From: Oscillospiraceae bacterium
GTDB taxonomy: Bacteria; Bacillota; Clostridia; Oscillospirales; Oscillospiraceae
Assembly (NCBI GenBank): GCA_017509485.1
Contig: JAFWPP010000032.1
Location: 55,961 to 119,960 of the forward strand
DNA: 64,000 bases
Direction: 5' to 3'
Part shown: in pieces, positions 2,765 through 57,319 of the stretch
How positions within the stretch are numbered: position 1 is the stretch's first letter
Layout: each line of letters starts with the position of its first letter
Translations under genes and position numbers: made by a program
The notes under the pieces: generated by a model
What the model was told of the DNA's origin: nothing
Databases searched by the model: none
The model's input: only the letters and a program-made list of their open reading frames with translations

Positions 2765-2785
2765 TTATGAAAGGATCAAAACACT

Positions 2786-3928
<1,143 letters not shown>

Positions 3929-3945
3929 GAAGTAACCGGTAAGAA

Positions 3946-3998
3946 AGAAGTAAGAAGTAACGGGGCTCGAAACCTCTTACTTCTTACTTCTTACTTTT
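3946..3998. terminator. Bidirectional terminator-like hairpin between metK and the convergent SLH gene
   Basis: AGAAGTAAGAAGTAA-16 nt-TTACTTCTTACTTCT followed by TTTTTT. Confidence 0.6.
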
Positions 3999-4004
3999 TT
4001 CTTA

Positions 4005-5129
4005 TCACTTGCTTGCCTCGTACAGAAGGCTTGCCGCCTCGAGGCGGGTCAGGGCTGCGTCGGGAGCGTCGCTCAGGGACGCGGGGAGCACGGTATCCGT
4101 GCCGAAGACGCGAGCGGTCAGGACCACGGCCTCCTGACGGGTGATGGCCTCGTTTGGACGATAGACCAAGCCCTCGGCGCTGCGCTCCCCCTCGATCAGG
4201 CCCCGGCGCAGAGCGGAGGCCAGATAGGGACGCAGCCAGGGGGCCGCGTCCTGTGCGTCGGCAAAGGCGGAAACCTGGAGACCGATTTCCGGCTCGATGC
4301 CCTCCAGGTCCATAACCATGGCCAGGAAATCCCCGCGGCTGACGCTCTGCTCAGGGCCGAAGCTCAGGCGGTCGGAAATCAGCTCGCCGCCGAAGAGGCC
4401 GGTCTCCCGCATCCAAAGGGGCGCGAACTGTTGATCCCGGTCCAGATCCGCGTAGGTCTGGGCGTCGCTGGGCTTGCGGATCGTCACCCGGACCGTCGCC
4501 GGTTCGGAGACGTTCCCCGCCTCGTCGGCAACCGTAAAGCTGAAGCTGTCCTCCCCCACCTTGTTCTTCTTGGGCGTATAGGTGAAGCTGCCGTCGGGCT
4601 CCAGCTCCACGCTGCCCCGCCGGGGGCGGTTCTCCAGGCGGAAGCTCAGCGTTCCGGTCCCGGCAGCCCGCAGCTTGCCGGTGTTGGGCAGGTTCCGCCA
4701 GGTTTCGATCTGAGAGGGCAGCGCCTTGGGCGGCTCCGCCTCGGTCTTTTCCAGGTGGAAGGTCAGCACGGTCTGTTCGCCCAGGCAGCCCTCCTCAAAG
4801 GGCAGAAAGGTCAAGGTCGCGTCTCCGCCCTTGACAGGCTCCAGCCGCAGGCGGGAGAGATCCGCCCGGGCCACGGCGTCCCCCACCCGGAGGACCCGGC
4901 TGCCCAGCAGGACCCGCCCGCAGTCCTCCGCGGGCAGGGCCATAAAGAACACGCCCTCCAGATCGCTCCGTCGGTCCAGCTCCTCCCGGGAGAAGCAGTA
5001 GACGCCCTCCTCCAAAGGGGCCTCCGCAGGGGCCTCCACCGCCGCGTCCGCCGCGGCGGGCAAGGCCAGCGCCAGCGTCAGGGCCAGCGTCAGCAGTGCC
5101 CTGCGCAGCCAAATATGATTGCGTCGCAT
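4005..5129 (-). CDS. Secreted protein with an Ig/cadherin-like domain and C-terminal SLH repeats
   Basis: Signal peptide MRRNHIWLRRALLTLALTLALALPAAADA. Ig-like stretch GSFTYTPKKNKVGEDSFSFTVADEAGNVSEPATVRVTI. SLH-like repeats (FADAQDAAPWLRPYLASALRRGLIEG..., ITRQEAVVLTARVFG). Confidence 0.8.
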   Translation of the reverse strand: MRRNHIWLRRALLTLALTLALALPAAADAAVEAPAEAPLEEGVYCFSREELDRRSDLEGVFFMALPAEDCGRVLLGSRVLRVGDAVARADLSRLRLEPVKGGDATLTFLPFEEGCLGEQTVLTFHLEKTEAEPPKALPSQIETWRNLPNTGKLRAAGTGTLSFRLENRPRRGSVELEPDGSFTYTPKKNKVGEDSFSFTVADEAGNVSEPATVRVTIRKPSDAQTYADLDRDQQFAPLWMRETGLFGGELISDRLSFGPEQSVSRGDFLAMVMDLEGIEPEIGLQVSAFADAQDAAPWLRPYLASALRRGLIEGERSAEGLVYRPNEAITRQEAVVLTARVFGTDTVLPASLSDAPDAALTRLEAASLLYEASK

Positions 5130-5170: not shown

Positions 5171-5265
5171 CTCTGTTTTTTGGAAAGTATGCGGCCCGGG
5201 AAGACGGAAGAAGGAAAAAGTCAGCAGCAAAACGTGATCGAAGACAGCCGCTTCTTACTTCTTGC

Positions 5266-6219
5266 TTATTGCTTCTTACTTTTCTTCGCGCCAAGCTTCT
5301 GCCAGAGGGGAAAGGTCAGGGGCCAGATCGCGCCGGCAAAAACCACCATGCAGAAATAGCGCAGGGCATTCCAATAGAGATCGTCGGAGATCAGGCCGAA
5401 GAGCTTTTTCAGCACAACCCGGAGACCAACCAGGATCGCCAGGCCCAGGACCGTCTTGCAGATCTGCCCCAGCAGAGGCGCCTGCTCGGAGAAGTTCGTC
5501 TTCCGGTCCGCGGTGTAGGACACGATCAGACCCAGCACACAGCCCAGCAGGGTCCAGCCGTTCTTCAGGCCGTCAACCCAGTTGCTGCTCTTGGTAACCG
5601 GGTCCATGAGCCGCACCTCCGCGGGGAAGGGATAGAGCAGAACATAGGCCAGATAGCCCAGGGTGAGCAGCAGCATCACGAAGAGGAAGCCGTACATAAA
5701 CTTCACGCTCTCCCGGGCCTTCCGGATAATGGGATACATGAGCAGCACCGCCCCCACGCCCAGAACCAGACCCACGACGACGTCAGAGGGATAATGGGCG
5801 CCCAGGTACATCCGGGAGAAGCCCACCAGGAGCACCACGACAATCATGATCCAGCGCAGCCAGCTTCGTTTCGTCGTCCGGGCGATGCCCAGGAACGTAC
5901 AGGTCGCGCCCTGGGTATGACCGCTGGGGAAGGAGTAGCCGGTGGCGCCGCTCTGGGCGGACTCCACCACGGTGAAGGAGGGATCCCGGACCCAGGGGCG
6001 GGGGACCCGCCAGATCAGCTTCATGGTCTGGGAGAGGATGGTGCCGAGAAAGCCCGTGGTCAGCAGATAGTAGCCCTTCCACTTGTCCACACACCAGAAC
6101 AGGATGATGGCGAGCACCATGAAGACAGTCTCCTCACCCAGGAAGGTGAAGGCCTGCATGATCCAGTTCAGCACCGGATTGCGGATCGATTCCAACGCTT
6201 TCAGGATTTCCATTTCCAT
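5266..6219 (-). CDS. PAP2-family phosphatase, integral membrane
   Basis: PAP2 motifs KLIWRVPRPW, FPSGHT and SRMYLGAHYPSDV, with multiple TM helices. Confidence 0.85.
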   Translation of the reverse strand: MEMEILKALESIRNPVLNWIMQAFTFLGEETVFMVLAIILFWCVDKWKGYYLLTTGFLGTILSQTMKLIWRVPRPWVRDPSFTVVESAQSGATGYSFPSGHTQGATCTFLGIARTTKRSWLRWIMIVVVLLVGFSRMYLGAHYPSDVVVGLVLGVGAVLLMYPIIRKARESVKFMYGFLFVMLLLTLGYLAYVLLYPFPAEVRLMDPVTKSSNWVDGLKNGWTLLGCVLGLIVSYTADRKTNFSEQAPLLGQICKTVLGLAILVGLRVVLKKLFGLISDDLYWNALRYFCMVVFAGAIWPLTFPLWQKLGAKKSKKQ

Positions 6220-13850: not shown

Positions 13851-14095
13851 GGTGTATAATAGAGACGCAAATCGGGATTTGGCAGGATGTTGCGAAAACG
13901 CCCGTAGGGGCCGATGCCCACATCGGCCCTTTCCCGTATCGGTGTGAGGGCCGATGTGGGCATCGGCCCCTACGGTGATTGCTGCATGTTCATTGCTCGT
14001 TGATGGGAAGCACTCTGTCGTCGATACCTCCCCTCATCCGGCGCTTCGCGCCACCTTCCCCCCAAGGGGAAGGCTTTTCCACAAATCCGAATCCG
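13851..14095. repeat. Compound palindromic repeat element, copy A (REP doublet plus conserved ~100-nt module plus GC hairpin)
   Basis: Arms GTAGGGGCCGATGCCCACATCGGCCC at 13904-13929 and the reverse complement at 13948-13973. The rest aligns almost base for base with the reverse complement of 30283-30619. Confidence 0.85.
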
Positions 14096-14121
14096 TCATG
14101 CCGCGCAAACAGGAGATGACT

Positions 14122-14952
14122 ATGAACTGCGACGTATTGATCTGTCCCGTCTGCGGCGGGGCGCTTGTGCAAACAGAGCGCTCCCTGCGCTGCGGGAAAG
14201 GGCACTGCTTCGATCTGGCGAAAGAGGGTTATGTTAATCTCTTGACCGGTTCCCGCCCCGGGGACGCCACCGGCGACAGCAAGGAGGCGGCCCGCTTCCG
14301 CCGCGACTTTCTGAACAAAGGGTATTACGCCCCCCTGCGGGACGCCCTGACCGCCCGCTTTGCCGGACGGACCGGCCGACTGCTGGATCTCTGCTGCGGC
14401 GAGGGATACTACACCGCTGCCCTGGGCGCCTTGCCGGGTCTGCGGGTCTACGGCTTCGATCTGGCCCGGGAAATGGTGCGGCTGGCGGCGAAGCGAGATC
14501 CGAATCTGACGCTTTTTGTGGCGAATCTGACCCGGATCCCGGTGCGGGACGAGGCCTTCGACTGGGCCACCCTGCTCTTTGCTCCCTTTCAGGAGAAGGA
14601 GCTGCTGCGGATCCTGAAGCCTGGCGGGAAGCTGGTGCTGACGGTCCCCGGGAGACGGCACCTCTACGGTCTCAAGCAAGCGGTCTACGACAAGCCCTAT
14701 GAGAACGACGAGGCCCTGCCCCGGACCGAAGCCCTGCGGCTGCTGGGGACGAAGAAGATCCGCGCCCAAATCACCCTGAATGCCCGGGCCGACATCCAGG
14801 CCGTGTTCCGCATGACCCCCTACTACTACCGCTCCTCCCCCGCCGACCGGGCCAAGCTGGAGGATCTGGAGTCCCTGGGCACGGAGATCGAATTCGTCAT
14901 CGCGGAGTATGAGAAATATTTCACAAATATTTTCTTGCATCCCGCGAAATAA
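14122..14952 (+). CDS. rlmA: 23S rRNA (guanine-N1)-methyltransferase RlmA family
   Basis: N-terminal Zn-ribbon CPVCGG...LRCGKGHCFDLAKEGYVNLL and SAM motif LLDLCCGEGYYT, as in RlmA. Start set at ATG 14122, 6 nt after AGGAG. The upstream part of the track ORF is a translated repeat. Confidence 0.9.
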   Translation: MNCDVLICPVCGGALVQTERSLRCGKGHCFDLAKEGYVNLLTGSRPGDATGDSKEAARFRRDFLNKGYYAPLRDALTARFAGRTGRLLDLCCGEGYYTAALGALPGLRVYGFDLAREMVRLAAKRDPNLTLFVANLTRIPVRDEAFDWATLLFAPFQEKELLRILKPGGKLVLTVPGRRHLYGLKQAVYDKPYENDEALPRTEALRLLGTKKIRAQITLNARADIQAVFRMTPYYYRSSPADRAKLEDLESLGTEIEFVIAEYEKYFTNIFLHPAK

Positions 14953-16573: not shown

Positions 16574-17353
16574 TCAATTTTCAATTGTTCTGGGCTGTCC
16601 GCAGCCGGCGCAGATGGAGCGGTCGGCGCGGTTCTGGGTGCCGCAGACCGGGCAGAGCCAGGAGGCGCTGGGCGCGCCCTTGGGGCGGCCGCAGCCGACG
16701 CAGACCCTGCGGCTCTCCCGATTCTCTCTGCCGCAATAGGCGCAGGTCCAGCCATCGGTGCGGCGCTTGGTGCCGCAGAGCTTGCAGGCCTCGGCGTTTT
16801 CGTCGTTGGCTATGCCGCAGACCGGGCAGCTCCAGCCCGGCGCCGAGGCGAAGCGTCTGCGCTGGCAGGCTGTGCAGCGGCTCTCTGTCTCCGGGTTCTC
16901 CGTGCCGCAGCCCTCGCAGATCCAGGTCAGCAGGGGTCGGTCCTTGGGGGCCGCACAGCCCTGGCATGCCTGGGTGCTCTCCGGGTTCTCCGTGCCGCAG
17001 AAGGGACAGCGCCAGGTGGGGACCCTGCGCTGATCCCTGGGGGCGCCGCAGACAGCGCAGCGGCGCTCGTCGGTGTTTTCGCTGCCGCAGGCCGGGCAGA
17101 TCCAGCTGCGTACCAGCGGCGCGGGCGGCTCATTTTCCGGCAAAGCGTCCCGGGATCGCAGGCTCAGGAGCAGCAGGAGCAGGCCGAAGCCGGCCAGCAC
17201 CAGCGCCGCCCAAAAGGCGGACTCCGCCAGCTCTGCAAAATCCGACATGCCCCGGGCCACTTCCCGGGCAAACCAGTCCGAGCGGCGGACAAAATACAGG
17301 AAGACGCCAAGCACAACGCCGGAAACCAAAGCGGATAAGCCGATCTTTTTCAT
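16574..17353 (-). CDS. Membrane protein with six tandem RanBP2-type zinc-finger/zinc-ribbon repeats
   Basis: Two N-terminal TM helices, then six copies of W-x-C-x2-C-x3-N-x5/6-C-x2-C (WICPACGSEN..CAVC, WRCPFCGTEN..CQGC, WICEGCGTEN..CTAC, WSCPVCGIAN..CKLC, WTCAYCGREN..CVGC, WLCPVCGTQN..CAGC). The start lies 3 nt after the GH13 stop. Confidence 0.85.
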   Translation of the reverse strand: MKKIGLSALVSGVVLGVFLYFVRRSDWFAREVARGMSDFAELAESAFWAALVLAGFGLLLLLLSLRSRDALPENEPPAPLVRSWICPACGSENTDERRCAVCGAPRDQRRVPTWRCPFCGTENPESTQACQGCAAPKDRPLLTWICEGCGTENPETESRCTACQRRRFASAPGWSCPVCGIANDENAEACKLCGTKRRTDGWTCAYCGRENRESRRVCVGCGRPKGAPSASWLCPVCGTQNRADRSICAGCGQPRTIEN

Positions 17354-17356
17354 GCC

Positions 17357-25146: not shown

Positions 25147-28100
25147 TCAAACGGAACCGGGGTCATCCTCCTCTTCCCGCAGCAGCTGCTCCAGCCGCTC
25201 CAGATGCTTGAGGGCGTCGAAGCTGGAGCCGCGGCCTTCCTCGCCGGCGCGGGAGAGGGTGGTGGGGTCGAAGACCCCCGTGGTGGTCAGCGGCTCCCGG
25301 GCGGCGGTCTCCCCGACCGGCTCCGGCCGGGGCGCGGACTCCCGGAGCGTCTGCTCCGGCGGCCGGACGGGCTCCGGGACAGGCGGCCGGTCAGGCGCCT
25401 CTCCCTGCTGGGCGGCGGACTTGCCCGTATCCCAGGATTGGGTCAGATCCATCCGGGGCATGGTGGTGAAGGCGTCCGGGGGCGGCATGGGCTCGGCGGC
25501 GGGCGGCGCATCCGGATCCGGCTCGTCGACGCCCCGGCGGGGATCCGCCAGCTTCACGGGGAGCTTGACGATGGGGGGCCGGGAGAAGCGGGTCAGCAGA
25601 GCCACGATCAGGAAGGCCAGAAAGCCCGCCAGGGAAATCACGCTGATTTTCAGCCCCAGGGCAAAGCCCGGAGCTTCATAGTCCAGGGCGATGGCGTGCA
25701 GGCCAGGCTCCAGATGGACGGCGATCATGGCGTCGCCCAGGGGGGTGATCCGGCGGGCCTCCCCGTCCACGGTGAGTCTCCAGCCCTCGTCGGCGGGAAT
25801 GGAGAGGTAGAGCAGGCTTGGCTCATGGACGCGGACGGCGCCCTCCACGTGGGTGTCGGTGACCTCGGTGGGGATCATGGAGCCCTCGCTCAGCTGCCCA
25901 TAGGCCTGATCGAAGAGACCGGTGCGGAAGAGGGCGGCGCCCAGGGTGACGCTGCCGGTGGTGTCGCTCTTTTTGGCGCGGTAGCGCAGGCTGATCTTGT
26001 CTCCCACGGAAAAGGCGCCCATGCAGCGGTTGTAGCCGTAGCTGTCGGACCAGGTGTACTGCCGCTCCCCGTTGAGGAAGAAGGTCACGTCGCTGGTTCC
26101 GGAGCCCTTGGAATACACGCAGAGGGTCCCGTCGGCGGGCATGACGAAGCTGGCCTCCACATAGTTGTCGTCGTTGCAGACACCCTTGACCTGGAAGCCG
26201 GTGGAGCTCTTGCCGCTGAGCTCCGCGGTGCCCACGGCCTTTACGTCGGAGATTTTTACGTTGCTGTAGAGGGGCTCTTCGATGCCGGTCATCTCCCGGA
26301 ACAGGCGGTTGAGCCGGTCAAAGGGAATGCCGGAATTCTGGGACGCGTCGTATTCCAGCGCGTTGTCGTTCACCAGGAAGCCCAGGCTCAGATAGGCCTT
26401 GTTCTCCAGCAGCAGCACCTCGCCCTTCCGGGCCACCTGGCGGAAGTAGAGGGTGTCCAGATTCCGCCCGTTGCGGTCGATCAGATATTTGACGCCCAGC
26501 AGCAGATTGGTGAAGGGATCCGCCTCCTGGTAGACGTAGCGATTGCCCGCCACGGAGGCCGCCATGCCGATGCTCTGCAGGAAGGCGGAGACCCGGCTGT
26601 TGGCGGCGGAGGAGAAGACGGAAACACCGTTGTAGCCCAGCAGGGTCCCGTCGTTGAGGGTCTGCTTCATGGCCACCTCGGCCCGCCAGAGATCCACAGT
26701 CTCGCTCTCCCGCTGCTGCATGATCTCCACGATCTCCTTGCTGTTCTCCTTTTTGGTGGGATAGTAGGAGGAGTCGGTGAAGCCGATCTTATTGACGCCC
26801 AGGGCCATACAGCCCAGGGACTCGCAGAGCATGCAGAAGCAGAGGCTCAGCACCAGCAGCTCCTTACGGATGACGCGGAAGGCGTAGAGCAGCAGCACCG
26901 CCAGCGCCAGCAGCGCAACGGCGGTGGTCGTCAGAACCACCAGCTTTTCCCCGGAATGGATGACGCAGTAGAGCAGCAGCGTGACGGGAACGATCAGCGC
27001 CAAGGCCCGCCATTTGGGCAGATGATCCAGCTCCGTATAGGCCCGGAATGCCATAAAGATCACCGTAAAGGACCAGAGGAAGCTGAAGCGGTAGGGCAGC
27101 ATATTGGGGAAGTGCAGGCCGTGCCAGAGATAATCGAGGGTACGGAAGAGAAAGCTGTTGGCAAAGAACAGCAGCAACAGCACAGTAAAGATCCGCTCCC
27201 GCCGGGGTATGCGCTTACAGAACAGATAGCAGGTCGCCAGGATCAGGGTAAAAAAGCCGCAGAAGATGTTGGGCAGGCCCTCCATGGTGGTGGGCTTGGT
27301 CAGGGTCCCGGCGTTGGAAAGCACGTCCCGGATGCCCTGCAGCGGGACGCGGAAGGAGGAGAAGAAGGCGCCGACGTAGCCCAGACGGAGGCTCAGCAGG
27401 GCCTCATGGGCGCCGATCCAGCTGGGATAGGTCACAGACTCTCCGGTGAATTCCGGCACCTGCTTGCCGAAGAAGGCGTACAGATCCGCCACCTTGCCCT
27501 TGGCGATCAGCTCGATGCCGGCCTGGTGGGTCATCTCCGGGATTTTGACGATGTTCATCGCGTAGGCGTTGGGAAATTTGTTGACGGCGGAGGAGGTGGC
27601 CTGCAGGCCCAGATAGGCGGGAACCGTCAAAAACGCCGTCATCCCCAGCGCCACCAGCGTAAAGACGGCAATCCGCCAGAAGCGGGTCCAGAGCCCCGCC
27701 AGATCATCCCAGTTGACGACGTGCCAGCCGAGGAACAGCAGCAGCACGAAAATACAGACAAACAGGCCGATGTAATAGCTGCAGTAAACCGACATCGCCA
27801 GGCTCACCACATAGAGCACATAGCGGCGTTCCCGCATCAGCTCAAAGGTCCCCAGCGTCACCAGGGGCAGCAGAGCCACGGTGTCCAGCCAGATGGCGTT
27901 CCAGTAGTAGCCCATCAAAAAGGCGCAGAAGGCGTAGGCCGTGGAAAACACCGCCACAGCAAGCTCCTCCCGCCCGAAGGTCTTCCGCAGGAAGTGGGCG
28001 CAAAACAGCCCCGCCAGGCCCAGTCGAACCAAAACCATCAGATTGTACCAGGGCATCACAAGGCCCTCCGGCAGCAGGACCGCCGGGAGGTTCAGCGGGC

Positions 28101-28428
28101 TCGCCAGATAGTATGCAAAGAGGGAAAGGTAATTGGTCCCCATGCCCGTGGTCCAGGAGTGGAGCAGGGAGTTTCCGTTCTGCAGCCTGGTCCGCAGATC
28201 CAGATAAAAGGGATAATACTGGTGCCACTGGTCGTGGGCCAGGATCATCCTGCTGCCGAAGGGGATGACGCCGCAGCAGGCCCAGACCACGCCCATGATC
28301 AGCAGCGGCAGGAAAAAGGCGGTCAAATACAAATAGCGGGCCTTCCGCGGGCGGGAGAGAAAACCGCCCGCGGCATAGAATCCCCTCAGGGATTTCCGGG
28401 CCGCAGATTGGATCGTCATATCGGTCAC
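25147..28428 (-). CDS. YfhO family membrane glycosyltransferase-like protein with a Pro-rich C-terminal tail
   Basis: 1093-aa polytopic ORF. The N-terminal region (ILAHDQWHQYYPFYLDLRTRLQNGNSLLHSWTTGMGTNYLSLFAYYLASPLN) is YfhO-like. It lies 18 nt downstream of the GH2 gene. Confidence 0.85.
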   Translation of the reverse strand: MTDMTIQSAARKSLRGFYAAGGFLSRPRKARYLYLTAFFLPLLIMGVVWACCGVIPFGSRMILAHDQWHQYYPFYLDLRTRLQNGNSLLHSWTTGMGTNYLSLFAYYLASPLNLPAVLLPEGLVMPWYNLMVLVRLGLAGLFCAHFLRKTFGREELAVAVFSTAYAFCAFLMGYYWNAIWLDTVALLPLVTLGTFELMRERRYVLYVVSLAMSVYCSYYIGLFVCIFVLLLFLGWHVVNWDDLAGLWTRFWRIAVFTLVALGMTAFLTVPAYLGLQATSSAVNKFPNAYAMNIVKIPEMTHQAGIELIAKGKVADLYAFFGKQVPEFTGESVTYPSWIGAHEALLSLRLGYVGAFFSSFRVPLQGIRDVLSNAGTLTKPTTMEGLPNIFCGFFTLILATCYLFCKRIPRRERIFTVLLLLFFANSFLFRTLDYLWHGLHFPNMLPYRFSFLWSFTVIFMAFRAYTELDHLPKWRALALIVPVTLLLYCVIHSGEKLVVLTTTAVALLALAVLLLYAFRVIRKELLVLSLCFCMLCESLGCMALGVNKIGFTDSSYYPTKKENSKEIVEIMQQRESETVDLWRAEVAMKQTLNDGTLLGYNGVSVFSSAANSRVSAFLQSIGMAASVAGNRYVYQEADPFTNLLLGVKYLIDRNGRNLDTLYFRQVARKGEVLLLENKAYLSLGFLVNDNALEYDASQNSGIPFDRLNRLFREMTGIEEPLYSNVKISDVKAVGTAELSGKSSTGFQVKGVCNDDNYVEASFVMPADGTLCVYSKGSGTSDVTFFLNGERQYTWSDSYGYNRCMGAFSVGDKISLRYRAKKSDTTGSVTLGAALFRTGLFDQAYGQLSEGSMIPTEVTDTHVEGAVRVHEPSLLYLSIPADEGWRLTVDGEARRITPLGDAMIAVHLEPGLHAIALDYEAPGFALGLKISVISLAGFLAFLIVALLTRFSRPPIVKLPVKLADPRRGVDEPDPDAPPAAEPMPPPDAFTTMPRMDLTQSWDTGKSAAQQGEAPDRPPVPEPVRPPEQTLRESAPRPEPVGETAAREPLTTTGVFDPTTLSRAGEEGRGSSFDALKHLERLEQLLREEEDDPGSV

Positions 28429-28446
28429 CTCATTCAGGGATAGGGA

Positions 28447-30267
28447 TCAAGGATCGGAAAAAAGCTTTCTATGTATTATACCACAATCGTTCTGAAGTTT
28501 CAACTGTTTCCTATCGTATGTGGTCAGGCCGTTGGTCTCGTCCTCCACGTCGGAGAGCTGGGTGTAGACGGCGGCGCAGAGTCCCCGGGGCACGGCGGGC
28601 GTGATCTGCTCGTCAAAGAGGGCCTTCACCGCGGCCTGCCAGGCCTCCCGGGTCTCAAGCGTCTTATACCCGTAGGTCTGCGCCTGATTGAAGCTGTGGG
28701 CCGGGTCCTTCCAGACATAACCGCCAAACTCCGAGAGCACCACGGGCTTCCCCGTAGCCGCCGCGTTCCGGAAGCGCGGCAGGCGTCCGGGCATCCGGAA
28801 GCGGCCGAAATATACGTGTCGGCTGTCCACATCCGTTTTCCCGACCCGGAACCAGCCGGAGGCCGTGTCGATCACCCGGGTGGGATCCAGGGTCTTCAGG
28901 GTCTCGTAGGCCCGGGTGCTGTACTGCTGCCCCCAGCCCTCGTTGTAGATGGTCCAATAGACCACGGAAGGGTGGCTGTAAAGGCGGCGGACCGTCGCCT
29001 CCATGTGAAGACGGAACCAGTTCCAGCGGCTGCGGCTCCGGGTCCGGAACAGATGGGGGAAGCGCTGGAAGCCCACGGTGGGCAGCACCGTGTCCCGCAG
29101 ATAGCCGTAGGGGCCGCAGTTGATCATGTCCTGGAAAACGGCCACGCCCAGCCGGTCGCATTCGTAATAGAACAGCTCCGGCTCGATTTTGATGTGCTTG
29201 CGGACCATGTTGAAGCCCGCCCGCTTCGCCAGAAGCAGATCGTCGGCAAAGCAGGCCGGGTCCGCGGGGGTCCAGAGCCCGTCGGGCCAGTAGCCCTGGT
29301 CCAGCAGGCCGTTGAAAAAGTACGGCTTCCCGTTCAGCAGCAGCCGGGGGATCCCGTCCGCGAGGCCGGTCCCGATGGTCCGCAGGGCGAAATAAGACCG
29401 GACCCGGTCCTCCCCGCAGACCACGGTGAATTCATACAAATACGGGTCCTCCGGGGTCCAGAGCCGGGGGCTTTCGGGCCTCAGCACGGCCTTCCCGTCC
29501 TCGACGGGCCATTCCTTCCCCTCGAAGAGAATGCTTCCCTTCCGGACGGCCATACCCTCCGGGTGATTGTCCATATATTCCCAGGGGTCAAGCTCCGTCT
29601 CCTCCCGGCCGGGGAAGGCGAAGAGCTCTACCGTCACGTCTTCCAGAGACGGAGTGCAGCGGAGCTCCGTGATAAAGGTCTCGGGGACCCATTCCAGCCA
29701 GACCGTCTGCCAGATGCCGGAGACCGGGGTGTACCACATACCGCCCCGTTTGTCCCGCTGCTTGCCCCAGGGGTACTCCGTACCGCCTTCATCCGCGACG
29801 CACAGCACCAGCAGGTTCTCCCCGGAGCAGGGACTTTTCAGCTCCACGGTCAGCGGTCCCCAGAGCAGGGTCTCGGCGTTCCCGAGAGGCGTCCCGTTGA
29901 AGAGGATATGCGTGATGCGCTGGTCCGCCCCGCCGCAGTGGAGCAGCAGCCGCTTCCCCGCGGGGATCTCCTCCAGGAAGAAACGCTTTTGGTAGCAGAG
30001 AAAGGGCGTTTGTTTCCCATCGAAATCCCCGACGCCGGACAAAGCGCTCTCCGGCGGGAAGGGCACCAGGATCCGGCGGTCACAGGCCAGTTCCCAGCTG
30101 TCGTTGGCGCCAAAATCCCAATAACCGTTCAGATTGATCCAGCCCTCCCGGACCAGCCGGGGCCGGGGATAGACGTCCCAGGGCTTGAACGCCGGATTGG
30201 CGTTCAGCCGCTCCCGCAGCGCCTCGCCGCGCTCCGTCCAGAGCTGTACGGTGTTTGCTTCCTTCAC
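28447..30267 (-). CDS. Glycoside hydrolase family 2 protein
   Basis: GH2-like blocks (GFNMVRKHIKIEPELFYYECDRLGVAVFQDM, WTIYNEGWG). Start set at GTG 30267, 9 nt after GGAGG. The upstream 46 codons of the track ORF are translated repeat sequence. Confidence 0.85.
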   Translation of the reverse strand: MKEANTVQLWTERGEALRERLNANPAFKPWDVYPRPRLVREGWINLNGYWDFGANDSWELACDRRILVPFPPESALSGVGDFDGKQTPFLCYQKRFFLEEIPAGKRLLLHCGGADQRITHILFNGTPLGNAETLLWGPLTVELKSPCSGENLLVLCVADEGGTEYPWGKQRDKRGGMWYTPVSGIWQTVWLEWVPETFITELRCTPSLEDVTVELFAFPGREETELDPWEYMDNHPEGMAVRKGSILFEGKEWPVEDGKAVLRPESPRLWTPEDPYLYEFTVVCGEDRVRSYFALRTIGTGLADGIPRLLLNGKPYFFNGLLDQGYWPDGLWTPADPACFADDLLLAKRAGFNMVRKHIKIEPELFYYECDRLGVAVFQDMINCGPYGYLRDTVLPTVGFQRFPHLFRTRSRSRWNWFRLHMEATVRRLYSHPSVVYWTIYNEGWGQQYSTRAYETLKTLDPTRVIDTASGWFRVGKTDVDSRHVYFGRFRMPGRLPRFRNAAATGKPVVLSEFGGYVWKDPAHSFNQAQTYGYKTLETREAWQAAVKALFDEQITPAVPRGLCAAVYTQLSDVEDETNGLTTYDRKQLKLQNDCGIIHRKLFSDP

Positions 30268-30282
30268 TGTGCCCAACCTCCA

Positions 30283-30619
30283 GATTCGGATTTGTCGGGA
30301 TGCCTTCCCCTTGGGGGGGAAGGTGGCGCGAAGCGCCGGATGAGGGGAGGTATCGACGACAGAGCGCCCCCCATCAACGAGCATTGAACATGCAGCGCCC
30401 CTCATCCGTCATCCGGCTTCCGTGAGACGCCGGATGCCACCTTCCCCCGAGGGGGAAGGCTTTGCGGAGAGCAATCACCGTAGGGGCCGAACTCGAAGAG
30501 TCACGAATGTATGCCTACATCGGCCCTATCCCGTATCGGTGTGGGGGCCGATGTGGGCATCGGCCCCTACGGGCGTTTTCGCAACATCCCTACAAATCCC
30601 GATTTCTGCAGTTATCATA
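30283..30619. repeat. Compound palindromic repeat element, copy B
   Basis: REP arms at 30480-30526 (interrupted by a 21-nt insert at 30491-30511) and 30545-30570. The conserved module at 30303-30400 and the flanks match the reverse complement of copy A. An extra ~75-nt two-hairpin module lies at 30400-30475. Confidence 0.85.
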
Positions 30620-30656
30620 CACCTTAGACGTCGAAAAAACAAGCTCGTTCAAAAAA

Positions 30657-30690
30657 ACACGCGCCGTTTTGCGGCGCGTGAGGAAATCGC
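30657..30690 (-). terminator. Intrinsic terminator of the upstream membrane-protein gene
   Basis: Minus strand: CACGCGCCGC-aaaa-CGGCGCGTG followed by TTTTTTT. Confidence 0.6.
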
Positions 30691-32199: not shown

Positions 32200-32280
32200 A
32201 TTCTGTCTCCTTTCCGTTGTTGGCTCCAGTATAGCGCAGACAGGAGACGGATGCTGTCGATGCGTGGATACGCCCGGAAA

Positions 32281-32373
32281 AATTCGGATTTATCAAGTGA
32301 AAAGGCGCAAGGTTCCGGGGATCTGCTGTCTTCCGCCTTGAGCCTTGCACCTTGGCGCTGCAAATCCCGAATT
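32281..32373. repeat. Possible core-less relative of the palindromic elements (outer inverted repeats only)
   Basis: AATTCGGATTT (32281-32291) and AAATCCCGAATT (32362-32373) form the same outer inverted repeat seen around the REP doublets. No GTAG arms lie between them. Confidence 0.35.
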
Positions 32374-32376
32374 GCG

Positions 32377-47796: not shown

Positions 47797-48363
47797 CTAC
47801 GAGCAGTGACTTTTCCGGTCCCCGTCCCCTACGGCCTGGTGATAGAGCCCTGCCAGAAGCTGCCAGAGGCCCTTGTCGAGGATACCTGAGGGCTCCGCGC
47901 CGCAGCAGCGCTGGAGGCTGCGAAGGGCTTCGGCGGTGGTCTCGTCGCAGACCCCGGAGAGGGGGCAGTCCGCCACGTTGGGGTAGACCTGGTGGAGGAT
48001 GTGGAGCATGGCCTGGATCAGCAGCACGTGGAGGTTGTCGCTGCCCTCCAGGATGGCCTGGTTGGGGTTCATCACGATGTCCAGGGGCGCGGCGGGCTCC
48101 ACCTCCACGGCGGCGGTCCGGTAGGCGGCGCAGATCGCCTGCCAGGTGGCGAAGTCGGTGATCCCCGTCTGGGGCAGGCCGGCCCGCTTCTGCTGGAGCG
48201 AGACGGCCTTGGCGGTCTGGGGCCCGTAGATTCCGTCCGGAATCACCCGGGGGCAGTTCTTGTCATGCAGGGCGATCACCCGCAGCATGGTCTGCAGACT
48301 GGTAACGGATCGGCCTGAGAAGCGCGCATCGTTGTTGGGGTCCGTAGGTACTCCTCCTTTCAA
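47797..48363 (-). CDS. Protein with two PG_binding_1 (peptidoglycan-binding) domains
   Basis: Repeats GRSVTSLQTMLRVIAL...DGIYGPQTAKAV...TGITDFATWQAI and LHVLLIQAMLHIL...CDETTAEALRSLQ...GILDKGLWQLL. The only in-frame start is the TTG at 48363, which sits upstream of an AAAGGAGGAG. The start is unresolved. Confidence 0.75.
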   Translation of the reverse strand: MKGGVPTDPNNDARFSGRSVTSLQTMLRVIALHDKNCPRVIPDGIYGPQTAKAVSLQQKRAGLPQTGITDFATWQAICAAYRTAAVEVEPAAPLDIVMNPNQAILEGSDNLHVLLIQAMLHILHQVYPNVADCPLSGVCDETTAEALRSLQRCCGAEPSGILDKGLWQLLAGLYHQAVGDGDRKSHCS

Positions 48364-48487
48364 AATCGGGGTTTGCCGGGCTCATTCGTAGGGGCCGATG
48401 CCCACATCGGCCCTCCCGATTGACCGGGGCAAGGGCCGATGTGGGCATCGGCCCCTACGGGTTGGAGCGCCCGACAAATCCGAATTG
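48361..48487. repeat. REP doublet (REPIN-like element), copy C
   Basis: Arms at 48388-48413 and 48433-48458, 19-nt spacer. Outer inverted repeat CAAAATCGGGGTTTGCCGGG / CCCGACAAATCCGAATTG. Confidence 0.85.
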
Positions 48488-50469: not shown

Positions 50470-50720
50470 GATTTCCAAAAGGGGGATGACCCCTTTTGGC
50501 CGTTTGAATGAGGGGCGAGGTCCGGGGAGGGGGGAGAGATTCGGAATCTTCCCCCTCCCCGGCCGGTTCTTTTCCCCCTTTCTTGCCGGAACAAGAAAGG
50601 GGGCCGCCGGAGGCATGCCTGCCTTTGATGGAGGCAGCTGCCTATCCGCCCCCTCATCTGTCATCCGCCTTGCGGGGGACGGCGGATGCCACCTTCCCCC
50701 CAGGGGGAAGGCTTTTGGGT
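50470..50720. repeat. Cluster of at least six consecutive GC-rich hairpins, including a member of the GCCACCTTCCCC hairpin family
   Basis: Hairpins at 50475-50499, 50522-50562, 50574-50603, 50619-50637, 50662-50688 and 50689-50716. The last two modules recur at 30410-30463, and the final hairpin recurs at 14050-14081 and 30303-30327. Confidence 0.7.
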
Positions 50721-50723
50721 GGC

Positions 50724-51689
50724 CTACAGGGTGAACTGGACAGCGCAGAAGGCGGCGTAGATCAGCAGCAGCAGGATGCCCTGGGCCCGGGAGAGCTTGC
50801 CCTTGAGCAGGGCGGGCAGGGTGAGGATCAGCATGACGGTGATCATCAGGGGGATTTCCAGCACCAGGCTGGCGTTGTGGCCGAAGAGCATGGCGCTCTG
50901 AGGCACCTTGAAGGGGGCCAGGGTCACGGAGACGCCGCTGACCAGCACCAGGTTGAACACGTTGGCGCCGATGACGTTGCCCAGAGACAGATCGCTGTGG
51001 CCCTTCACCAGGGAGGTGATGGCGGTGACCAGCTCCGGCAGGCTGGTGCCCAGGGCCACGAAGGTCAGGGCAATGACGGACTCGGGCACGCCCAGGGCCT
51101 GGGCAATCTTGGTGCCGTTGTCCACCAGCAGCTTCGCGCCCACGGCGATCAGGGCCGCGCCCACCACCAGGAAAAGGATCATCTTCCAGGTGGGCATCTC
51201 CTCGGCTTCCTCGGTCTCCGCCTCCACGGGCTGGGGATTCTTCTTCATCTGCCGCACGGTGACGATCATATAGGCCACGAACATGGTCAGCATCACCAGG
51301 CCCAAAATCCGGGTGAATTCTCCCAGCAGATAGGCCGCCACGCAGTAGATGGCCGCCGCCAGGAAGAAGAAGAGCACGGGCATTTTCAGGGTCTTGGGGT
51401 CCGCCTTGCCGGGCCGCACCGCCAGGGTGACAGCGGCGATCAGGGCCGTGTTGCAGATGACGGAGCCGATGGCGTTGCCGTAGGCGATTTCGCCGTGACC
51501 TTCCACGGCAGAGATCGTGGAGACCATGACCTCCGGCAGGGTGGTGCCGATGGACACCACGGTGGCGCCGATCAGCAGCTCGGGCAGATGGAATTTGCGG
51601 GCCAAGGCGCTGGCGCCGTCCACGAACCAGTCTCCGCCCTTGATGAGGCAGACCAGACCGACGATAAACAGTAATATCGGGACAAGCAT
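50724..51689 (-). CDS. CaCA family cation antiporter (YrbG-like)
   Basis: Two alpha-repeats (GATVVSIGTTLPE and FVALGTSLPELV). Start at ATG 51689 after GGAGGA. Confidence 0.9.
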   Translation of the reverse strand: MLVPILLFIVGLVCLIKGGDWFVDGASALARKFHLPELLIGATVVSIGTTLPEVMVSTISAVEGHGEIAYGNAIGSVICNTALIAAVTLAVRPGKADPKTLKMPVLFFFLAAAIYCVAAYLLGEFTRILGLVMLTMFVAYMIVTVRQMKKNPQPVEAETEEAEEMPTWKMILFLVVGAALIAVGAKLLVDNGTKIAQALGVPESVIALTFVALGTSLPELVTAITSLVKGHSDLSLGNVIGANVFNLVLVSGVSVTLAPFKVPQSAMLFGHNASLVLEIPLMITVMLILTLPALLKGKLSRAQGILLLLIYAAFCAVQFTL

Positions 51690-51754
51690 ATACGTTCCTC
51701 CATTTTCAAAATCAAACTGTGTAATTGGACAAGCTCCATGGGCGTTCATCCCAT

Positions 51755-51811
51755 AGAAAAGGCGAGACCTTCGCCGCGGACAGAGCAAAGCTGTGCGGCA
51801 AAGGTCTCGCC
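51755..51811 (-). terminator. Riboswitch expression-platform terminator
   Basis: Minus strand: GGCGAGACCTTTGCCGC-17 nt-GCGGCGAAGGTCTCGCC followed by TTTTCT. The 5' arm is shared with the 3' end of the aptamer. Confidence 0.7.
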
Positions 51812-51925: not shown

Positions 51926-51955
51926 GGCGTTTGTGCGCATCATCGTTGAGAAAAA

Positions 51956-52087
51956 CAGGATTTGTCGAAATCATCCGCAGGGGCCGAACTCGAAGAGTCA
52001 CGATGTATGCCTACCTCGGCCCTCCCTGTGGGCAGAGGAAAGGGCCGCTGTGGGCATCGGCCCCTACGCCTCCGCAAATCCGAAAAT
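51956..52087. repeat. REP doublet (REPIN-like element), copy D
   Basis: The 51977-52022 arm starts GCAG and carries a 20-nt insert at 51988-52007. The second arm is at 52042-52067. The element lies 19 nt downstream of the MATE stop. Confidence 0.8.
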
Positions 52088-55085: not shown

Positions 55086-55203
55086 AAATACGGATTTGGC
55101 GATTTCATCCGTAGGGGCCGATGCCCACATCGGCCCTCTCTGTCGAGCGGGGCAAGGGCCGATGTGGGCATCGGCCCCTACGGCTCTACAAATCCCGATT
55201 TTA
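55086..55203. repeat. REP doublet (REPIN-like element), copy E
   Basis: Arms at 55111-55136 and 55156-55181, 19-nt spacer. Outer inverted repeat ATACGGATTTGGCG / CTACAAATCCCGAT. It lies between the metG stop and the next gene's start. Confidence 0.85.
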
Positions 55204-55250: not shown

Positions 55251-57284
55251 TCAGCAAAGTCTGCTGCCGGCGGGGATGGCATCGTCCAGGATCAGCAGAT
55301 GCAGCTTTTCGCCGCGCTCGGCGGAGAGCAGCATGCCGCAGCTGAGCTGCCCCATCATCTTCCGGGGGGCCAGGTTGGTGACGGCAACCAAGGTCTTGCC
55401 GATCAGCTCCTCAGGCTTGTAGAACTTGGCGATGCCCGAGAGGATCTGGCGGGGGGTGCCGGTGCCGTCGTCCAGCTGGAACTTCAGCAGCTTCTCGGAC
55501 TTCTTCAAGTTCTCGCAGGCCAGGACCTTGACGACGGTCATCTCGACCTTGGTGAAATCGTCAAACACGATCTCGGGAAGCGGCTCCGGCAGAGGGGCCT
55601 CCTCCACGGGGGCGGCAGGGCCGATGTGGGCATCGGCCCCTACGGCAGCGTCCTCCTGTGGCGCACACTGTGCGCCGCTACTGGCAGCGGCCTGGGCAGC
55701 CTGGAGCTTTTCCAGCTCCTCCAGTTCCTTGGCGGCGTCAATGCGGGGGAAGAGAGCAGGGCTGTTCTCCACCTTGGCGTCCCGGTAGAGAGTGCCGAAG
55801 AAGGCCAGGGAATCCCAGTCGTACTCCGTGGCTCCGATGCGCTTCATGATCTCTGCGGAGGTGGCGGGCATGAAGGGCTGCAGCAGGCCGCCGCAGATGC
55901 GGACGGTCTCCAGCAGATTGTAGAGCACCCGGGCCAGACGGGGCTTCTTGTCCTCGTCCTTGGCCAGCTTCCAGGGCTCGTTCTCGTCGATATATTTGTT
56001 GGCCCGGCCGATGACCTTAAAGATTTCGCCCAGAGCGTTCTGGAAAGCGTACTTCTCCATCTGCTCCTCGTAGACGTGGACCAGATCGCAGGCCATGGTA
56101 ATCAGCTCGTCGTCCTTGGCCTCATCCTCCTGCTGCTCCAGGGGCAGCTGGCCGCCGAAGTACTTGCCCGCCATAGCCACGGTGCGGCTGACCAGGTTGC
56201 CCAGATCGTTGGCCAGATCCACGTTGATGGTATTGATCAGCAGCTCGTTGGTAAAGTTGCCGTCGGAGCCGAAGGGGAAGGTCCGGAGCAGGAAGAAACG
56301 CAGAGCGTCCACGCCGTAGCGCTCGGACAGCAGATAAGGATCCACCACGTTGCCCTTGGACTTGGACATCTTGTCGTTGTTGAACAGCAGCCAGCCGTGG
56401 CCGTAGATCTTCCTGGGCAGAGGCAGGCCCATGCTCATCAGGAAGGCGGGCCAATAGATGGCGTGGAAGCGGACGATCTCCTTGCCGATGAAATGCACGT
56501 CGGCGGGCCAGAAGCGCTTCCAGTCCTCGCCGTTCTCGTTCAGATAGCCCAGGGGGGACAGGTAGCTGAACAGGGCGTCCAGCCAAACATAGACCACGTG
56601 TTTTTCGTCGAAATCCACGGGCACGCCCCAGGTAAAACTGGTACGCGAAACGCAGAGGTCCTGCAGCCCGCCCTCGCAGTCGATAAAGTTGTTGACCATC
56701 TCGTTGACCCGGCTTCTGGGCTCCAGAAAATCGGTTTCGGTCAGCAGCTTCCGCACCTGGTCGGCATACTTGCTGGCCCGGAAAAAGTAGGCCTCCTCCC
56801 GGGCAGGCTGAACCTCGCGGCCGCAGTCGGGGCATTTGCCGTCCTTCAGCTGGCTCTCGGTCCAGAAGGACTCACAGGGGGTGCAGTACAGGCCCTCGTA
56901 GCTGCCCTTGTAGATGTCGCCCTTCTCATACATGGTACGGAACACAGTCTGGACCGTTTTCAGATGGGACTCGTCGGTGGTGCGGACGAAGCGGTCATAG
57001 GAAATATTCATCAGCTTCCACAGGTCCTTGACGCCCTTGGGCGCCTCCACAATGCTGTCCACGAACTGCTTGGGAGTGACGCCGGCCTCTTTGGCCTTGT
57101 TCTCGATCTTCTGGCCGTGTTCGTCGGTACCGGTGAGGAAGATCACATCGGCGCCCCGCATTCGCTTGTACCGGGCCATGACGTCCGTGGCCACGGTGCA
57201 GTAGGCATGGCCGATGTGGAGCCGGCTGGACGGATAGTAGATGGGGGTGGTGATAAAGAATTTTTCTTTGCAGGTATCACACAT
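55251..57284 (-). CDS. metG: Methionine--tRNA ligase with a C-terminal tRNA-binding (EMAP/Trbp111-like) domain
   Basis: HIGH (RLHIGHAY) and KMSKS motifs, Zn knuckle CPDCG. Start at ATG 57284 after GGAGGA. Confidence 0.95.
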   Translation of the reverse strand: MCDTCKEKFFITTPIYYPSSRLHIGHAYCTVATDVMARYKRMRGADVIFLTGTDEHGQKIENKAKEAGVTPKQFVDSIVEAPKGVKDLWKLMNISYDRFVRTTDESHLKTVQTVFRTMYEKGDIYKGSYEGLYCTPCESFWTESQLKDGKCPDCGREVQPAREEAYFFRASKYADQVRKLLTETDFLEPRSRVNEMVNNFIDCEGGLQDLCVSRTSFTWGVPVDFDEKHVVYVWLDALFSYLSPLGYLNENGEDWKRFWPADVHFIGKEIVRFHAIYWPAFLMSMGLPLPRKIYGHGWLLFNNDKMSKSKGNVVDPYLLSERYGVDALRFFLLRTFPFGSDGNFTNELLINTINVDLANDLGNLVSRTVAMAGKYFGGQLPLEQQEDEAKDDELITMACDLVHVYEEQMEKYAFQNALGEIFKVIGRANKYIDENEPWKLAKDEDKKPRLARVLYNLLETVRICGGLLQPFMPATSAEIMKRIGATEYDWDSLAFFGTLYRDAKVENSPALFPRIDAAKELEELEKLQAAQAAASSGAQCAPQEDAAVGADAHIGPAAPVEEAPLPEPLPEIVFDDFTKVEMTVVKVLACENLKKSEKLLKFQLDDGTGTPRQILSGIAKFYKPEELIGKTLVAVTNLAPRKMMGQLSCGMLLSAERGEKLHLLILDDAIPAGSRLC
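55618..55643 (-). repeat. Single REP unit embedded in frame in metG
   Basis: Exact 26-mer GGGCCGATGTGGGCATCGGCCCCTAC on the plus strand. On the coding strand it reads A-V-G-A-D-A-H-I-G-P in the linker before the C-terminal domain. Confidence 0.9.
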
Positions 57285-57319
57285 GAGTGATTTCCTCCCT
57301 TGGTACAAGATTGGGCTAT

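Follow-up and report, generated by a model that had tools for sequence, protein, structure and literature searches.

Similar leaders upstream of rlmA and GH2-yfhO are probably copies of a mosaic palindromic repeat family in an uncultured rumen Oscillospiraceae bacterium

Two genes with the same upstream sequence

The 64-kb stretch of DNA analyzed here (the window) carries the rRNA methyltransferase gene rlmA on the plus strand and, on the minus strand, a GH2 gene with yfhO next to it (Table 1). The identities that the first-pass annotation gave to both genes hold, that of rlmA through the Pfam domains listed in the table and that of the GH2 gene through a Glyco_hydro_2_C domain. Close RlmA homologs are labeled "MAG: Oscillospiraceae bacterium," on contigs from ruminant gut samples. 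The same annotation had reported a common sequence upstream of the two genes, with its modules in the same order, and we found that positions 13851 to 14095 (plus strand, copy A) do align with 30283 to 30623 (minus strand, copy B) in this manner. The spacing to the start codons was also correct, with 27 nt from 14095 to the rlmA ATG at 14122 and 16 nt from 30283 to the GH2 GTG at 30267.

A repeat finder recovered two pairs of arms that are complementary between the strands, one of 113 nt (13851-13963/30511-30623, 81% complementarity) and one of 89 nt (13981-14069/30308-30396, 93%). A 45-nt block (14013-14057/30320-30364) is identical in copies A and B, with 0 such blocks expected from 100 shuffles. 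The extra module described for copy B exists (about 30397-30470) and turned out to be an inverted copy of the right-side hairpin module, serving as left arm in a larger palindrome. Within its second REP unit, copy B also has an insert of ~21 nt. The GGTGTAT(A/G)AT box, which had been counted as part of the common leader, is indeed present 8 nt ahead of the repeat in A and B alike, but it is not part of the repeated element itself.

TABLE 1 Positions of the genes, promoters, and repeat elements in the window
Feature	Position	Strand	Remarks
rlmA, downstream of copy A	14122-14952	+	Zn_ribbon_RlmA and methyltransferase domains (Pfam)
GH2 gene, downstream of copy B	28447-30267	-	
yfhO, after GH2	25147-28443	-	
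Intrinsic terminator belonging to the gene that precedes copy B	30658-30680	-	9-bp GC-rich stem, then T run
GGTGTATAAT, -10-like box of the native rlmA promoter	13851-13860	+	Outside the repeat; aligns with TGTGGTAGAAT of an element-free relative
GGTGTATGAT, -10-like box of the native GH2 promoter	30614-30623	-	Outside the repeat
Copy A, whole end-bounded composite	13869-14092	+	224 nt
Left inverted end (TIR-L) of copy A, AAATCGGGATTTG	13869-13881	+	
GTAG-tagged REP doublet of copy A	13902-13975	+	16-nt spacer
Right-hand part of copy A (type II 94-205)	13981-14092	+	Loop core M5, two-hairpin right arm, right end
Right inverted end (TIR-R) of copy A, ACAAATCCGAAT	14081-14092	+	Pairs with TIR-L in predicted folds
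Copy B, whole end-bounded composite	30284-30605	-	322 nt
REP doublet of copy B	30478-30572	-	Second unit with insert of roughly 21 nt, ACATTCGTGACTCTTCGAGTT
Type II 20-205 in copy B	30284-30470	-	Left arm (about 30397-30470), M5, right arm, TIR-R
Basic member (ends and REP doublet only)	48363-48485		Between two same-strand genes, adjoins the downstream RBS
Basic member	55086-55201		Flanked by the metG terminator and the next gene's TTGAAG-17-TATAAT promoter; not in a leader
Member with variant REP units	51952-52085		22 nt after a stop codon
End-bounded element with a different core of ~70 nt	32277-32374		Between divergent genes, then a TTGACT-17-TATGAT promoter
Solitary two-hairpin arm module	50650-50715	+	Just after the stop codon of the minus-strand gene 50724-51788; 89% identical to the arm of copy B

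Anatomy of the element family

Copies A and B belong to a set of elements closed by common inverted ends, AAATC-GGGATTTG ... CAAATCC-GAAT, in which, as in MITEs, terminal inverted repeats surround a short non-coding element. The right end ACAAATCCGAAT is the inverted repeat of the left end AAATCGGGATTTG. Pairing between GGGATTTG and CAAATCC, seen in all predicted folds, closes each element as a rod, with the pair AAATCGGGATTTG ... CAAATCCGAAT as its basal stem. The end motif has 10 matches in the window at up to 2 mismatches, against 1.2 expected, and a total of six end-bounded elements were found in the 64 kb. The TIR-R motif of copy A also closes elements at 48474-48485 and 30284-30295.

Between these common ends lie different cores, namely, a GTAG-tagged REP doublet (REPIN-like), a 205-nt core designated type II, and composites. 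The REP unit, GTAG-GGGCCGATG-CCCA-CATCGGCCC, is a 26-nt palindrome with the GTAG tag unpaired. There are eight exact units in the 64-kb window, seven of them intergenic and one in a linker of metG, and more are present in related loci; the high copy number and the mostly extragenic location are those of REPs. In the doublets two inverted units are separated by spacers of 16 to 17 nt, as seen at 13902-13975 (copy A), 48387-48459, and 55109-55183, and in all three the repeat finder gave 29-nt arms with 100% complementarity. The metG unit (window 55613-55645; gene 55251-57308, minus strand) is a single REP lying in-frame in the linker that connects the anticodon-binding and the C-terminal tRNA_bind domains, where it is translated as ...EDAAVGADAHIGPAAPVEE... 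in the protein.

A full type II element of 205 nt consists of the left end, a two-hairpin left arm, the loop core, an inverted two-hairpin right arm, and the right end. In blastn comparisons with the plain type II element of locus L012, copy B corresponds to type II positions 20 to 205 (96% identity) and copy A to positions 94 to 205 (92% identity); a type II covariance model matches copy A at E = 2.6e-19. Ahead of the type II part, both copies carry the left end, a linker, the REP doublet, and GGTGATTGC. As read from these alignments, A and B are one composite subvariant, a type II element with a REP doublet close behind its left end, and copy A has additionally lost the left arm of 74 nt that forms the extra module of B. 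Among the sequences compared, the left part of the two copies, which contains the linkers GATGTTGCGAAAACGCC and GGTGATTGC, was seen nowhere else. The REP variant with the ~21-nt insert found in copy B recurs at 51972-52016 and, in strain L015, in the first REP unit of copy A.

Insertion downstream of existing promoters

Empty versions of both sites were found in related genomes, so that presence/absence polymorphism at orthologous positions, a feature of MITEs, was seen at the rlmA and the GH2 sites alike. A relative with the same gene order (a gene for a large SLH-domain surface protein divergent from rlmA; RlmA 82% identical) has an element-free intergenic region of 204 nt versus 416 nt in the window. 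Its collinearity with the window runs up to ...TGTGGTAGAAT AGGGATCA, aligned to GGTGTATAAT AGAGACGC upstream of rlmA. Empty rlmA sites are those of L022 and L082. For GH2, empty sites were found in four other species (L076, L078, L080, and L084). In L076/L077, which keep the GH2-yfhO-rpmH synteny, AAGGTGTAGAAT AGGGATCAG... is followed by an RBS and a GTG with no element, and the box of the window, GGTGTATGAT, aligns with AAGGTGTAGAAT (L076) and AAGGTGTATAGT (L078), from species without the element.

Since the -10 boxes and the 8 nt that follow them are collinear with the element-free orthologous promoters, the element was inserted downstream of boxes that already existed. Judging from these alignments, the insertion lies ~8 nt downstream of the -10 boxes, roughly at +3 of the putative transcript, and brings no promoter. 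The distance from the -10 hexamer to the left end is exactly 8 nt in A, B, and the type II copy of L014 (where TTGACA-17-TACAAT and 8 nt precede the left end) and 1 nt in L081.

The first-pass annotation had proposed, as one of two readings, a mobile cassette that delivers a promoter plus a structured leader. Part of this stands: the element is a mobile or repeated cassette, its place at both loci is between the RBS and a plausible -10 box, and if those promoters fire, it is the 5' leader of both genes. Delivery of the promoter does not stand. A cassette with its own promoter would place GGTGTAT(A/G)AT at the same 8-nt distance from the left end, as is the case in A and B; however, both boxes and the sequence upstream of them are collinear with the promoters of element-free orthologs, the spacer between box and left end is identical at just 2 of 8 positions between A and B, and no such box accompanies the other copies. 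Besides, no sense-strand sigma-70-type site passed the criteria of our scan at either locus, inside or outside the element, and no promoter was found within the repeated unit. We regard this origin of the promoters as exceedingly unlikely.

In element-free relatives, the rlmA and GH2 promoters resemble each other (GGTAGAATAGGGATCAG(G/A)(G/A)ATCAG, L022 9946-9990 and L076 9952-9990). The common stretch (GGTAGAATAGGGATCAGrrATCAG) covers the -10 box and the first ~16 transcribed bases, and within 2 mismatches only these two matches occur in ~400 kb, together with a weaker match at 4 mismatches in L055. This likeness implies that the two target sites were already similar before the insertion.

Other copies and their genomic context

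A search for copies with the 55-nt loop core as a pattern returned seven loci in the metagenome collection, one of them (L015) being copy A's ortholog from a different strain. The other six are M5-bearing copies from one metagenome. Plain type II elements without any REP are found in L012, L013, L014, and L017, while the copy in L016 has the same left half as type II and ends at the contig end, and the core-bearing copy in L011 is another mosaic. The loop-core pattern had 0 matches in the representative genome contigs, which indicates that the source species, or these repeats, are absent from the representative genomes. An end-to-end pattern gave 49 matches in the same contigs, nearly all of them due to chance; the real relatives among them were only L043, L055, L065, and L069.

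The location of the copies relative to genes was diverse. A forward position between promoter and RBS was found in copies A, B, and L014. The element at the end of L011 adjoins an RBS in reverse orientation, and the one at 48363 is intercistronic and adjoins the next RBS. Upstream of a good promoter we found those of L017, L012, 55086, and 32277, and a further group is located after a stop codon or between a stop and a terminator (L016, L013, 51952, 50650, and the L011 mosaic). This mosaic (945-1200 of L011, oriented) comprises four tandem REP units in the same orientation, one arm module, and an end-like motif, all between a stop codon and an intrinsic terminator, i.e., in a 3' UTR. Among the core-bearing copies, five are forward and three reverse. 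The RBS adjoins several copies, within 3 to 10 nt of an end in B, L014, L011, and 48363.

In many independent assemblies, the contig breaks inside the element, either 77 or 102 nt before rlmA. These breaks and the variety of contexts and orientations form the pattern of a dispersed repeat. Copies in varied orientation relative to genes had been named at first pass as one observation that would refute a leader role, and such copies are what the search found; a fixed position and orientation with respect to the downstream gene, as in leader RNAs, was not observed.

Site history and mosaicism

Both copies are kept in strains 97.8% and 98.7% identical to the window, copy B being conserved in the one at 98.7%. 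The differences within the element among strains are indels (a 20-nt REP insert and single-base changes in length) and the swap of a linker. Beyond the species of the window, the rlmA site is occupied in two further species, L081 and L018, with the same right junction (...CCGAAT..CATGCCGC..AACAGGAG) and different cores. In L081 there is a REP doublet of a different REP type that starts 1 nt after TATAAT, while L018 has several elements, including a diverged type II. In a tree of RlmA, the three occupied species make up one clade and three empty ones its sister clade, a pattern that, together with the common right junction, fits one old insertion whose content has turned over since. The rlmA site has been occupied throughout speciation, and the GH2 insertion is confined to the species of the window. 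Consequently, conservation upstream of orthologs, a feature of leader RNAs, was not found: none of the four other species has the element at GH2, and at rlmA two of six other species are occupied, with different cores.

The right-hand part of the element differs at 9 positions between A and B, at 3 between B and an unrelated copy (L013), and at 5 between A and L014. With B closer to L013 and A closer to L014 than they are to each other, the two leaders are themselves mosaics.

Predicted structure

Copies A and B are each predicted to fold as one closed rod, with energies of -124.7 and -184.6 kcal/mol. Compared with shuffled sequences, the leader windows 13867-14130 (copy A) and 30258-30607 (copy B) have z values of -7.5 and -8.9. 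All members of the family are predicted to form very stable closed rods, and the three that were tested against shuffles gave z values of -6 to -9. The reverse complements fold as well as the forward strands, with similar numbers of G-U pairs. The type II covariance model detects diverged relatives in three other lineages (L018/L065/L069, L055, and L043), where its scores are nearly equal on both strands.

The covariation analysis suggested at first pass was also run. A MAFFT alignment of the four lineages was too poor on the right side for this purpose and was replaced by one fitted by the covariance model, which leans toward the structure by construction. In this structure-fitted alignment of nine copies from four lineages, canonical pairs occupy 96% of the cells, and 36 of 58 pairs have changed on both sides, versus 3 to 8 when the partners were slid. 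On these model-based measures the rod architecture is maintained and bears no mark of a strand-specific RNA, and a palindrome at the DNA level would fit equally well.

The loop core YCGTTGNNTGGGAGCRC is conserved in three lineages. A mini-ORF within it (ATG TTC ATT GCT CGT TGA after GAGGGG) was considered and rejected because in other lineages the corresponding G-run is followed by ORFs of entirely different length and sequence.

At gathering thresholds over the window, Rfam gave only a SAM riboswitch (RF00162, 81 bits) at 2628-2721, upstream of the gene 2771-3928, and none at the element; E-value scans of B and L012 returned only noise (best E = 0.095, a CRISPR repeat). The RBS is outside the rod in the predicted folds of both leaders, and no terminators were predicted in either of them on either strand. 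Thus, nothing like an expression platform, whether terminator/antiterminator or RBS sequestration, was found.

The second reading offered at first pass was a shared cis-regulatory RNA, that is, a dedicated riboswitch- or attenuator-like leader that would co-regulate an rRNA methyltransferase and an envelope glycosylation operon. At both genes the -10 box and the RBS enclose the same sequence in the same orientation; this arrangement, the strong predicted structure, and the loop core conserved across lineages are what such an RNA would look like. Yet the GH2 orthologs of all four other species and the rlmA sister clade are without the element, and the core at rlmA differs among species. In addition, members in either orientation appear in 3' regions (behind stop codons or ahead of terminators) and upstream of promoters, forward and reverse strands are alike in fold and score, and neither a terminator nor an Rfam family was detected. 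This reading, largely refuted by the context of the copies, is in our judgment very improbable.

A mosaic repeat family and its possible use by the host

With a good degree of confidence, we assign the two regions to a family of mosaic, palindromic, non-coding repeats with abundant copies in the genome of this uncultured rumen Oscillospiraceae bacterium. The element is of the REP/BIME/MITE kind and is probably co-transcribed. Regarding its spread, the REP part most likely moved by hairpin or single-stranded DNA transposition via a RAYT-type tyrosine transposase, with recombination or gene conversion among the copies by way of their common ends and arms. The combination of single-stranded DNA transposition with recombination or gene conversion would best explain the swapping of cores and the concerted evolution. 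RAYTs are single-copy genes, and the cognate RAYT gene is usually flanked by the same REPs. Searches (tblastn) with approximate RayT and IS608 TnpA queries found none in the window and the related loci gathered. No direct repeat that could be a target-site duplication was seen when the flanks of A, B, L012, and L014 were read directly, the exact boundaries being uncertain.

Given their position ~8 nt downstream of the genes' own -10 boxes, A and B would probably form, once transcribed, a self-contained hairpin rod with which the mRNA begins. Any effect on expression, such as 5' stabilization or processing, would then be a generic by-product of having a stable hairpin at the 5' end. Nothing in the analysis points to a specific regulation of rlmA or GH2-yfhO by the element.

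An end-bounded rod at +3 and next to the RBS could nevertheless have been exapted as a 5' UTR module and retained for changing expression, for example, by protecting the 5' end against 5'-exonuclease/RNase or by creating an RNase III site. Under this explanation, rlmA, GH2-yfhO, and the other leader-type genes would have a generic post-transcriptional property in common. The 8-nt distance from the -10 box in A, B, and L014 favors this possibility, as do the paired ends, which would enclose the RNA's 5' end in a highly stable rod, the occupancy of the rlmA site in the whole three-species clade, and the closeness of the RBS in four copies. However, the distance is 1 nt rather than 8 in L081, most copies are outside leaders, the GH2 insertion is found in one species only, the core at the rlmA site is not conserved, and there is no strand asymmetry. 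Overall, we think that exaptation is unlikely.

The repeat-family interpretation still has room for some target preference or 5' UTR selection, left by the 8-nt spacing, the long occupancy at rlmA, and the adjacency to the RBS. That the leader-type copies have been put to use has, in our estimate, a rather small chance, which derives from the spacing, the target sites that were alike before insertion, and the long occupancy at rlmA. Just as doubtful is the idea that the ends persist as a "landing pad" at transcript starts while the cores are swapped, with the host using the rod as a 5' UTR stabilizer or processing signal, or the ends as an operator. If true, the landing pad at rlmA would have been kept since before the three species diverged. 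Should the leader-type copies alter the fate of the mRNA, they would be a simple natural source of modular 5' UTR hairpins. For annotation, the elements should be masked as repeats, and not be taken for riboswitch-like leaders or small ORFs; they also break metagenome assemblies.

Other repeats in the window and related loci

A second kind of intergenic repeat was observed, consisting of arrays of 7-nt units (AAGTAAG, AGGCAAT, GGGATCA, TGAATAA, and GAAAGTT). In the window they are located at 3922-4015 and 5251-5281, and in relatives at L018 5660-5760, L055 4841-4930, L080 5560-5620, and L083 2885-2975. They often form hairpins with an inverted copy and, in several relatives, start right after the -10 box. 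In L080 (5500-5830), repeat elements seem to have entered the GH2 gene right behind its first ~9 codons, and the gene is called from a start about 300 nt further downstream. A Clostridium MAG (L048, 705-926) contains an AT-rich perfect palindrome that starts with the AAATCGGGATTTG motif inside longer inverted ends. Lastly, a 40-nt motif appears six times in the window (16624-17107, spacing of 84 to 90 nt) within the minus-strand gene 16574-17356, where the copies probably reflect a repeated protein domain.

Comparison with known repeat systems

Literature searches for MITE or REP families in Oscillospiraceae and Clostridia gave no description of this family. GTAG-tagged REPs, REP dimers in palindromic targets, and intragenic REPs have been described (PMC3733652), as have REPINs (PMC3116915). 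The GTAG tag is the site that RAYT transposases recognize and cleave on single-stranded DNA, and REP dimers within a larger palindromic "target" are known from Anabaena, Thermomicrobium, and Halothiobacillus (PMC3733652). Group 1 RAYTs occur in Clostridia (PMC5581495). The elements described here agree with REPs and REPINs in the short imperfect palindrome (20 to 40 bp) with an unpaired GTAG tag, in the inverted units that form one hairpin with a short spacer, and in the occurrence as head-to-head doublets, singlets, tandem arrays (four units in L011), and an in-frame unit in metG. As in those families, the units are common to related species and mostly extragenic. They differ in the host, a Clostridia-class Firmicute, which is outside the REP survey cited (PMC3733652). 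They also differ in that the REP doublet is one of several cores that can occupy the space between the same ends. Our analysis extends elements of the GTAG-tagged REP/REPIN type to rumen Oscillospiraceae.

Among the other families of small repeats, the MITEs found in 5' UTRs include the Correia elements of Neisseria and the enterobacterial ERIC/IRU. The similarity covers size (100 to 320 nt), the non-coding nature, the terminal inverted repeats, and the long hairpin that would form if transcribed, together with the insertion polymorphism between species and the frequent location between promoter and gene. Unlike these MITEs, no target-site duplication was seen and no promoter elements were found inside the ends.

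The BIMEs of enterobacteria and the pneumococcal BOX elements are mosaics of a few hairpin modules, intergenic and often co-transcribed. The family described here is likewise a modular and intergenic mosaic, in which a few kinds of hairpin modules and linkers are combined in different ways. However, the sequences of the modules are different, the type II core forms a long palindrome with two arms around a conserved loop, and the whole mosaic is closed by inverted ends. The family provides a clear example of one pair of inverted ends around interchangeable cores and, at one orthologous site, of the turnover of the content between them.
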